A stretch of DNA of 248 bases, from NCBI RefSeq assembly GCF_003334255.1, contig NZ_QOWU01000276.1. One strand, written 5' to 3'. Position numbers and translations under genes: made by a program. Under the pieces are notes generated by a model, which was not told the origin of the DNA, did not search any database, and was given only the letters and a program-made list of their open reading frames with translations. Every line of letters starts with the position of its first letter. Position 1 is the first letter of the stretch. Shown one piece after another: positions 33 through 248 of this stretch. The stretch is from Escherichia coli (lineage in GTDB: Bacteria; Pseudomonadota; Gammaproteobacteria; Enterobacterales; Enterobacteriaceae).

Positions 33-248
33 GTACCCGGGGAAATTTACAGCATCGGAACATACATTATTGCCGCAATAATCCCGTATGCAACCGACAT
101 CGGCAGAACCTATCAGCCAGGAGAAACTGTACAGGGTTCACGCCTTAAGCGATGCGCCATAATCAAAGATACAAGCGGGAACTATATGAAAGCTAACACC
201 GATGGCATTGACGGCAAACTATCCTCAGTTCCGGGCTCATGGATGGTG
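3..248 (+). CDS. Internal fragment of a protein-coding gene, partial at both ends; collagen-like repeat-containing protein, possibly a phage tail-fibre-like structural protein
   Basis: Frame 3 has 82 sense codons and no stop across the whole window, which has roughly a 2% chance in random sequence of this composition. About 68% of first codon positions are purines (56 of 82), as expected for coding sequence. The reverse strand has early stops in all frames (frame 1 at codon 4, frame 2 at codon 21, frame 3 at codon 18). Frame 1 on the + strand has stops at 79-81 and 160-162. The translation is given in the summary. The product call rests only on the Gly-X-Y motif and composition, not on a search. 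Confidence 0.65.

Follow-up and report, generated by a model that had tools for sequence, protein, structure and literature searches.

The junction of a collagen-like shaft and a distal tip in an Escherichia coli prophage side tail fiber, and the apparent exchange of the tip together with part of a neighboring assembly gene

The stretch of DNA analyzed here, referred to below as the window, is 248 nt long and lies near the 3' end of a gene for a prophage side tail fiber protein of Escherichia coli (Table 1). A check of open reading frames and their translations indicated that frame +3 is the only one open across all 248 nt; the five other frames contained only ORFs of 24 aa or less, and no Rfam family matched either strand of the window. 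Translation in frame +3 gives QGPQGPTGRL, then VPGEIYSIGTYIIAAIIPYATDIGRTY, and then QPGETVQGSRLKRCAIIKDTSGNYMKANTDGIDGKLSSVPGSWMV. Its best match is a copy in E. coli S1-CAM-02-A (locus L001, 8001-8248; 99.6% identity), and a further 27 complete E. coli genomes contain copies with 93-98% identity to the window. Matches were also obtained in eight Escherichia phage genomes (the PhiR5/PhiR12 series), and complete genomes of induced or isolated phages carry the fiber gene as well. At L001 the window falls within a coding sequence of 481 codons (6866-8311), annotated as 'prophage tail fiber N-terminal domain-containing protein', that ends 63 nt past the window (20 codons and a stop).

Table 1. 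Features of the window (nucleotide positions within its 248 nt) and of the full-length fiber protein of L001 (residue positions).
Feature	Position	Strand	Description or basis
Open reading frame	3..248	+	Residues ~379-460 of the ~481-aa prophage side tail fiber protein
End of the second collagen-like shaft segment (final Gly-X-Y triplets), QGPQGPTGRL	3..32	+	Pfam Collagen
C-terminal tip, first 74 of 94 residues (RLVPGE...FQRAY)	27..248	+	Constant length, unannotated
Segment singled out by the earlier note, VPGEIYSIGTYIIAAIIPYATDIGRTY	33..113	+	Holds the most hydrophobic stretch of the protein (translation, hydropathy)
First replacement cluster, tip codons 18/19/22	78..92	+	I/L, T/A/G/I, A/T/I
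Further replacement sites, tip codons 36, 45, and 49-50	132..176	+	36 Q/S, 45 I/L, 49-50 T/A/E, S/N
Most variable single tip position, codon 64	216..218	+	K/N/I/R
phage_tail_N (PF08400)	Residues 1-134		Pfam, E 2.1e-42
Collagen (PF01391), four matches	Residues 135-230 and 290-388		Pfam, E ~1e-8 for three, 1.8e-5 for one
Phage_fiber_2 (PF03406)	Residues 239-280		Between the collagen domains; Pfam, E 7.8e-16

The full-length protein of L001 consists of phage_tail_N, a coiled coil, Collagen, Phage_fiber_2, a second Collagen domain, and a 94-aa C-terminal tip, in that order. The Collagen match at residues 290-388 has an E value of about 3e-8, and the last ~93 residues of the protein match no Pfam family. 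Phage_fiber_C (PF06820) is absent from both the full protein and the tip, so that there is no PfC cap. The full protein is matched by PHROG phrog_366 'tail fiber protein' (E 3e-116), and the gene order gpJ, lom, fiber, DUF4376 tfa is found in L001, L007, and L013. An earlier note, made from the letters of the window alone, had raised the possibility of a tail fiber, and this reading is supported by the Pfam matches to phage_tail_N and Phage_fiber_2, by phrog_366, and by the prophage tail gene cluster in which the gene lies. The PF08400 N-terminus is found only in lambdoid carriers; carriers of the L002 and L009 types have other N-termini.

Several further features of these loci were observed. 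In L001, the tfa gene downstream of the fiber is cut after about codon 151 by an IS21-family element (ISSso4; istA/istB at 9008-11315), with a leftover DUF4376 fragment at 11416-11553 beyond the insertion (region 8780-11553); since an intact chaperone is missing after this insertion, the L001 copy of the fiber may be non-functional. A gene for a YadA-like (Eib-like) trimeric autotransporter adhesin lies downstream of tfa in L001 (12235-13551), and also after tfa in L003, L004, L006, L007, L008, and L010-L016. None of the lambdoid and PhiR5_2-type loci retrieved lacked it, regardless of the tip on the fiber, and it looks like a conserved moron at that position, which fits prophages of the P-Eib type. 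The fibers of L011 (1380-2879) and L016 (1851-3406) are given in RefSeq as pseudogene fragments or as frameshifted. The L011 fiber is nevertheless one intact 499-aa translation in a single frame, and its pseudogene call may be an annotation artefact of a repetitive gene.

Within the window, residues 2, 5, and 8 of the translation are Gly, and at residue 11 (nt 33-35), where the next Gly would fall, there is Val, so that the Gly-X-Y register is broken at nt 32/33. The earlier note had placed an abrupt switch at this point, from a collagen-like helix to a hydrophobic segment, and both the switch and its coordinates were correct, as was the 27-residue translation it quoted for nt 33-113, VPGEIYSIGTYIIAAIIPYATDIGRTY. 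The window shows no more than about three Gly-X-Y triplets; they are not a chance pattern, because in the full-length gene they close a tract of ~99 residues with a match to Pfam Collagen. Among them, GPQGPTG (nt 6-26) is the sole collagen sequence constant in all tip-bearing fibers. The segment after the switch had been described as rich in Ile, Tyr, Thr, and Ala, and it indeed contains 7 Ile, 4 Tyr, 3 Thr, and 3 Ala, along with 3 Gly. Its hydrophobic character is also real, no block of the 481-aa protein being more hydrophobic than the 11-mer IGTYIIAAITP (mean Kyte-Doolittle 1.54), but the alternation of hydrophobic residues ascribed to it is loose, the core being a contiguous run, YIIAAII. 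The position nt 32/33 is a boundary between a repetitive collagen shaft and a distal, non-repetitive C-terminal domain, as had been proposed.

Searches for relatives of this C-terminal domain returned close copies almost exclusively. The 104-aa sequence comprising the end of the collagen and the tip matched nothing in Pfam even at E<=10, and the tip matched no NCBIfam family and no PDB sequence (phmmer and profile searches). Against PHROGs there was one weak match, to phrog_17472 'tail protein' (E 2.6e-4). When 1.84 billion representative proteins were searched exhaustively with phmmer, the matches were relatives of at least 89% identity, none falling below ~89%, and two multi-repeat proteins. 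A word-indexed protein search likewise found close relatives only, and among 50,697 phage records tblastn of the tip (E<=10) picked out the eight PhiR phages and otherwise a single chance match. Both multi-repeat proteins were rejected as relatives. P0015 (E 8e-15) is an insect cuticle repeat protein (Chitin_bind_4) whose E value is inflated by repetition, since a single repeat gives only a 34-residue motif match of 28.5 bits; a single repeat of P0016 yields no alignment. Since the family, PDB, phage, and protein searches gave no accepted relatives other than close ones, the tip appears, as judged by sequence comparison, to be a narrow domain confined to E. coli prophages and without detectable relatives. 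Nearly all database proteins that bear the tip (P0001-P0011) are partial and come from contig ends; short-read assemblies are evidently broken by the multi-copy collagen-coding repeats, and fibers of this class are therefore under-represented as full-length database proteins.

We compared the fiber of L001 with fibers that share its shaft and with fibers that share its tip. The fibers of L003 and L004 share the N-terminal ~330-355 residues of the L001 fiber at ~91-93% DNA identity, with in-frame indels in the collagen, and carry two other tips after the last Gly-X-Y; pairwise comparison of the three tips (L001, L003, L004) revealed no significant similarity. Conversely, the tip of the window is found on three scaffolds. 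The first is the lambdoid Stf-type fiber of L001, L007, L008, L010, L011, L013, L014, and L016. The second is a 632-688-aa fiber with a different N-terminus, encoded downstream of a DUF6682/adaptor gene in L002, L006, L012, and L015 (from PhiR5_2, 2015C-3121, SW070917, and G1/2). The third is a P2 gpH-like fiber downstream of baseplate J/I genes in L009 (DETEC-S792). The tip is exactly 285 nt long, free of indels, in 13 of 13 loci, while the total length of the fibers that carry it ranges from 287 to 688 aa. Identity in these alignments is thus not uniform across the junction, shafts being kept where tips are unrelated, and the earlier note's proposal that the distal domain is a module subject to exchange is borne out in both directions, by three unrelated tips on one shaft and by one tip on three scaffolds. 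Neither of the two outcomes that the note had named as contrary to its proposal was observed.

Shaft variants differ by in-frame triplet indels. Very unequal shafts were seen to carry the same tip in P0014 (287 aa), P0013 (426 aa), and L006 (687 aa), P0014 having neither the Pf2 repeat nor any of the second collagen domain. Such differences in length are consistent with in-frame deletions and recombination inside the collagen repeats. Neither an invertase nor an inverted alternative tip segment was annotated beside the cassette in any fetched locus, and an invertase-driven tip switch, as in Mu and P1, was set aside on these annotations.

The tip DNA is rare across E. coli, occurring in 28 of the 5,426 genomes searched, at 86 places, with a median of 3 copies per carrying genome and as many as 8. 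Copies on different scaffolds within one genome are closely similar: identity is 98.6% between the P2-like and the lambdoid copy of DETEC-S792, and 98.9% between the copies on the two scaffold types of G1/2. These co-resident copies (L009/L014 and L015/L016) occupy different types of prophage. The similarity suggests cassette spread or gene conversion among prophages within one cell.

A DUF4376 tail fiber assembly gene (tfa) lies directly downstream of the fiber in 13 of 13 tip-bearing loci, and the DUF4376 domain (PF14301) spans residues 73-183 of the cognate Tfa (E 1.1e-19). Residues 1-80 of Tfa are unrelated between carriers of the window's tip and carriers of the L003/L004 tips, whereas from residue 81 onward the genes have ~98% DNA identity between carriers of different tips. 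The 5' DNA of tfa was found at 87 places in 29 of the 5,426 genomes. It is full-length in the same 28 genomes as the tip, with equal copy numbers in each genome, and the 29th genome, JNEC-KY203, has a partial match only. The tip and the first ~80 codons of tfa therefore always occur together at full length in this collection, and they appear to be co-inherited. In L003 (3515-4186) and L004 (3250-3921), the Tfa was observed to combine a weakly Caudo_TAP-like N-terminus (PF02413, E 0.0015) with the same DUF4376 C-terminus, making it a hybrid of two classical Tfa families, which fits domain shuffling in the chaperone gene. According to passages in PMC7882524 and PMC9608196, which cite North et al. 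2019, the design of Tfa comprises a variable N-domain that binds the C-terminus of the fiber and a conserved DUF4376 C-domain that trimerises. The covariation of the tip with the Tfa N-domain matches this published design, and we read the N-domain as probably tip-specific and the C-domain as probably generic.

The limits of the exchanged DNA were examined by comparing L001 with L003 and L004. With blastn, similarity stops at gene position 1066 (L003) or 983 (L004), within collagen-coding DNA and 102 and 185 nt upstream of the domain boundary at gene position 1168. No alignment was obtained through the tip, the spacer between the two genes, and tfa codons 1-80; from position 1702, inside tfa, the sequences are again ~98% identical. 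Between the scaffold classes that bear the window's tip, ungapped collinearity breaks down at 11-26 nt upstream of the Arg codon (nt 27), although some of these losses near the junction are GPQ or other Gly-X-Y triplet indels (slippage) rather than recombination joints. The upstream collagen context varies between tip variants right up to GPQGPTG, and reading frames are intact across all joints. The earlier note had suggested that, in a tail fiber, positions around 30-45 could mark a domain boundary open to modular exchange. That region does hold the module boundary at the level of the protein, but the joints in the DNA lie 11-185 nt upstream and inside tfa. Because the right joint is ~80 codons into tfa and the left joint is in the collagen repeats, the exchanged unit appears to be larger than the tip alone, comprising the last few collagen triplets, the tip, and the N-domain of the assembly protein.

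Variation within the tip was examined codon by codon among 11 sequences, and the positions at which the window differs were mapped against the 13 loci. Ten tip codons vary in amino acid (18, 19, 22, 36, 45, 49, 50, 64, 82, and 86), and only 4 variable positions are purely synonymous. The sole difference between the window and L001, T/C at nt 82, is itself a replacement in codon 19 (Ile in the window, Thr in L001); this codon lies in the most variable cluster, codons 18-22, and encodes Ala or Gly in other copies. Copies of the tip are 93-100% identical, and copies of the Tfa N-domain have at least 97.8% nucleotide identity. Pooled Nei-Gojobori dN/dS was ~1.05 for the tip, 0.60 for the Tfa N-domain (on very few changes), 0.22 for the conserved part of Tfa, and 0 for Pf2, values that rest on few substitutions, non-independent pairs, and recombining sequences and leave diversifying and relaxed selection indistinguishable. 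The surplus of replacements in the tip hints at, without proving, a surface on which selection is either diversifying or relaxed.

The architecture of this fiber has a precedent among the collagen-like proteins of E. coli prophages, which Ghosh et al. (2012, PLoS One 7:e37872; PMC3368898) divided into the classes EPclA, EPclB, and EPclC. EPclA was found by CD, AUC, and electron microscopy to be a trimer with a true collagen helix, its PfC cap trimerises alone and appears as a terminal knob, and the C-terminal domain was proposed to bind the cell surface. That study also noted that EPcl genes are present in multiple copies per genome and ascribed their modularity to recombination between co-resident prophages (PMC3368898). 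Like EPclA and EPclB, the fiber described here has a collagen shaft and a small C-terminal globular cap, but in those proteins the cap is PF06820 (the PfC construct being ~64 aa), whereas the window's tip is 94 aa long and has no PF06820. The better match, by architecture, is the rare class EPclC (ORF-401 of prophage P-EibA; ECED1_1681), which has the same order of PfN, Col, Pf2, Col, and a non-PfC C-terminus, for which PMC3368898 gives neither sequence nor family. EPclC genes, like the window's gene, are prophage-borne and present in multiple copies per genome, with a YadA/Eib-like gene nearby as in P-Eib-type prophages. Strain ED1a, the source of three EPclC examples, is not among the 28 listed tip genomes, but may lie outside the collection searched. 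The EPcl scheme leaves out the non-PfN fibers, both P2-like and PhiR5_2-type, that carry the window's tip.

The fiber and chaperone pairs of lambda (Stf/Tfa), P2 (gpH/gpG), and Mu (S/U) share with this fiber an N-terminal domain for attachment, Pf2 repeats, and a distal C-terminal region for receptor binding, the chaperone gene lying alongside, and in these pairs, as here, Tfa has a variable N-domain and a conserved DUF4376 C-domain (as in Mu U). They differ in that their shafts are beta-helical rather than collagen-like, and their tips have no detectable sequence similarity to the window's tip. That unrelated phages exchange distal fiber parts as modules is well documented. Bacillus BclA (C1q/TNF-like head) and gp24 of cyanophage Pam3 (TNF-like tip) are also known to bear a small C-terminal trimeric head on a stalk that is Gly-rich or collagenous. 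C1q/TNF-like heads are roughly 130 aa long; the window's tip, at 94 aa, is shorter, and it has no sequence similarity to either protein. The chaperone of the Pam3 fiber, gp25, grips the junction of the Gly-rich segment and the head with a variable N-terminal beta-sandwich (PMC9608196). Recombination in the stf/tfa homology regions has been measured experimentally between lambda and resident prophages (PMC3945230).

Based on the data presented above, the window probably spans the junction between the collagen triple-helical shaft and the distal tip of an EPclC-type trimeric side tail fiber, related to lambda Stf, in which the tip and the Tfa N-domain form an exchangeable cassette; we hold this explanation as a whole with fair confidence. 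By position and by analogy, the 94-residue tip would most likely be the distal cap, by which the chains trimerise and the collagen helix is brought into register, and on which the surface for the host receptor is located. It would fold with the help of the downstream Tfa, whose variable N-terminal ~80 residues would be specific for this tip and whose DUF4376 part would be generic, and we infer a direct contact between chaperone and tip. The repetitive collagen-coding DNA on the left and the conserved DUF4376-coding DNA on the right could then serve as arms, homologous recombination in both of which would move the cassette between co-resident prophages of different morphotypes and thereby re-target their fibers.

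A different division of labor between tip and chaperone is conceivable. In some phages a retained chaperone or a separate adhesin, rather than the fiber tip, binds the receptor, and the tip could likewise be a structural, 'foldon'-like cap only, with recognition carried out by tip-bound Tfa, as reported for Mu Tfa, or in the manner of an adhesin such as T2 gp38, so that specificity would reside in the Tfa N-domain. In the related EPclA, the PfC domain trimerises as a module by itself (PMC3368898), TfaMu is reported to stay on the fiber (PMC7882524), and the constant association of the tip with the Tfa N-domain is as expected of such an arrangement. However, the Tfa N-domain is nearly invariant, whereas the tip has replacements at about 10 positions and the higher dN/dS. 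Greater variation in the tip than in the Tfa N-domain is what one would expect of a fiber whose tip, rather than whose chaperone, is turned toward a variable host surface, and we regard recognition by Tfa as unlikely here. A further idea is that repeat-rich, multi-copy genes were misassembled or misannotated, for example with collapsed or chimeric collagen repeats, and that the mosaicism is not real; it draws on the partial database proteins at contig ends and on the two loci annotated as pseudogenes or frameshifted. The mosaic pattern is nevertheless present in closed, complete genomes as well as in eight complete phage genomes that were sequenced independently, the flanking contexts differ coherently (J-lom, DUF6682, or baseplate J/I), and frames are intact across the joints, all of which makes an artefact highly improbable.

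The alternatives extend to the fold of the segment that follows the collagen. IGTYIIAAII might form a short alpha-helical 'neck' that trimerises the chains ahead of a smaller globular head, and the succession of collagen, neck, and head is a recurrent design in collectins. An AlphaFold2 model of the tip as a linker-joined pseudo-trimer indeed has tip residues 10-24 helical in each of its three copies, but this model is unusable (pLDDT 33.6), and the AlphaFold2 monomer model, made with a shallow 8-sequence alignment and equally unusable (pLDDT 35.8), contains strands only, so that the same hydrophobic stretch is a helix in one model and strands in the other, both at pLDDT <50. The segment is also rich in beta-branched and aromatic residues and contains Gly, and a Pro follows after about 10 residues, leaving it too short for a coiled-coil neck. 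Chou-Fasman propensities for nt 33-113 (Pb 1.14 vs Pa 0.94) lean mildly toward beta, against a helical neck, although they do no better than the compositional argument from which the earlier note had called the segment probably beta-rich. Taken together, these points leave a helical neck quite improbable.

That fiber tips are modular, are accompanied by cognate chaperones, and are exchanged by recombination between prophages is well established. What is new here is the unannotated tip family, the limits of the exchange cassette including the N-domain of the chaperone, and the presence of the cassette on three scaffolds, sometimes within one genome. A bolder reading, which we consider doubtful, is that the tip has a trimeric receptor-binding fold of a structurally new kind, restricted to E. 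coli prophages, and that a recent sweep has carried it as a cassette through sipho-, myo-, and a third type of prophage. If this were true, a new fold in a recent sweep, with as many as eight copies in one genome, would indicate a strongly favored receptor on commensal and pathogenic E. coli. For databases, the analysis flags a small tip domain that no family collection covers. The cassette itself, made up of the last collagen triplets, the 94-aa tip, and the first ~80 codons of tfa, and found on three scaffolds, is a delimited natural swap unit and as such is practical information for engineering the host range of phages or tailocins. More broadly, the tips of side tail fibers set which strains a temperate phage can reach, and they therefore also set where prophage-borne virulence genes can spread, such as the Eib/YadA-like adhesins at the loci described here and the Shiga toxins of related phages.
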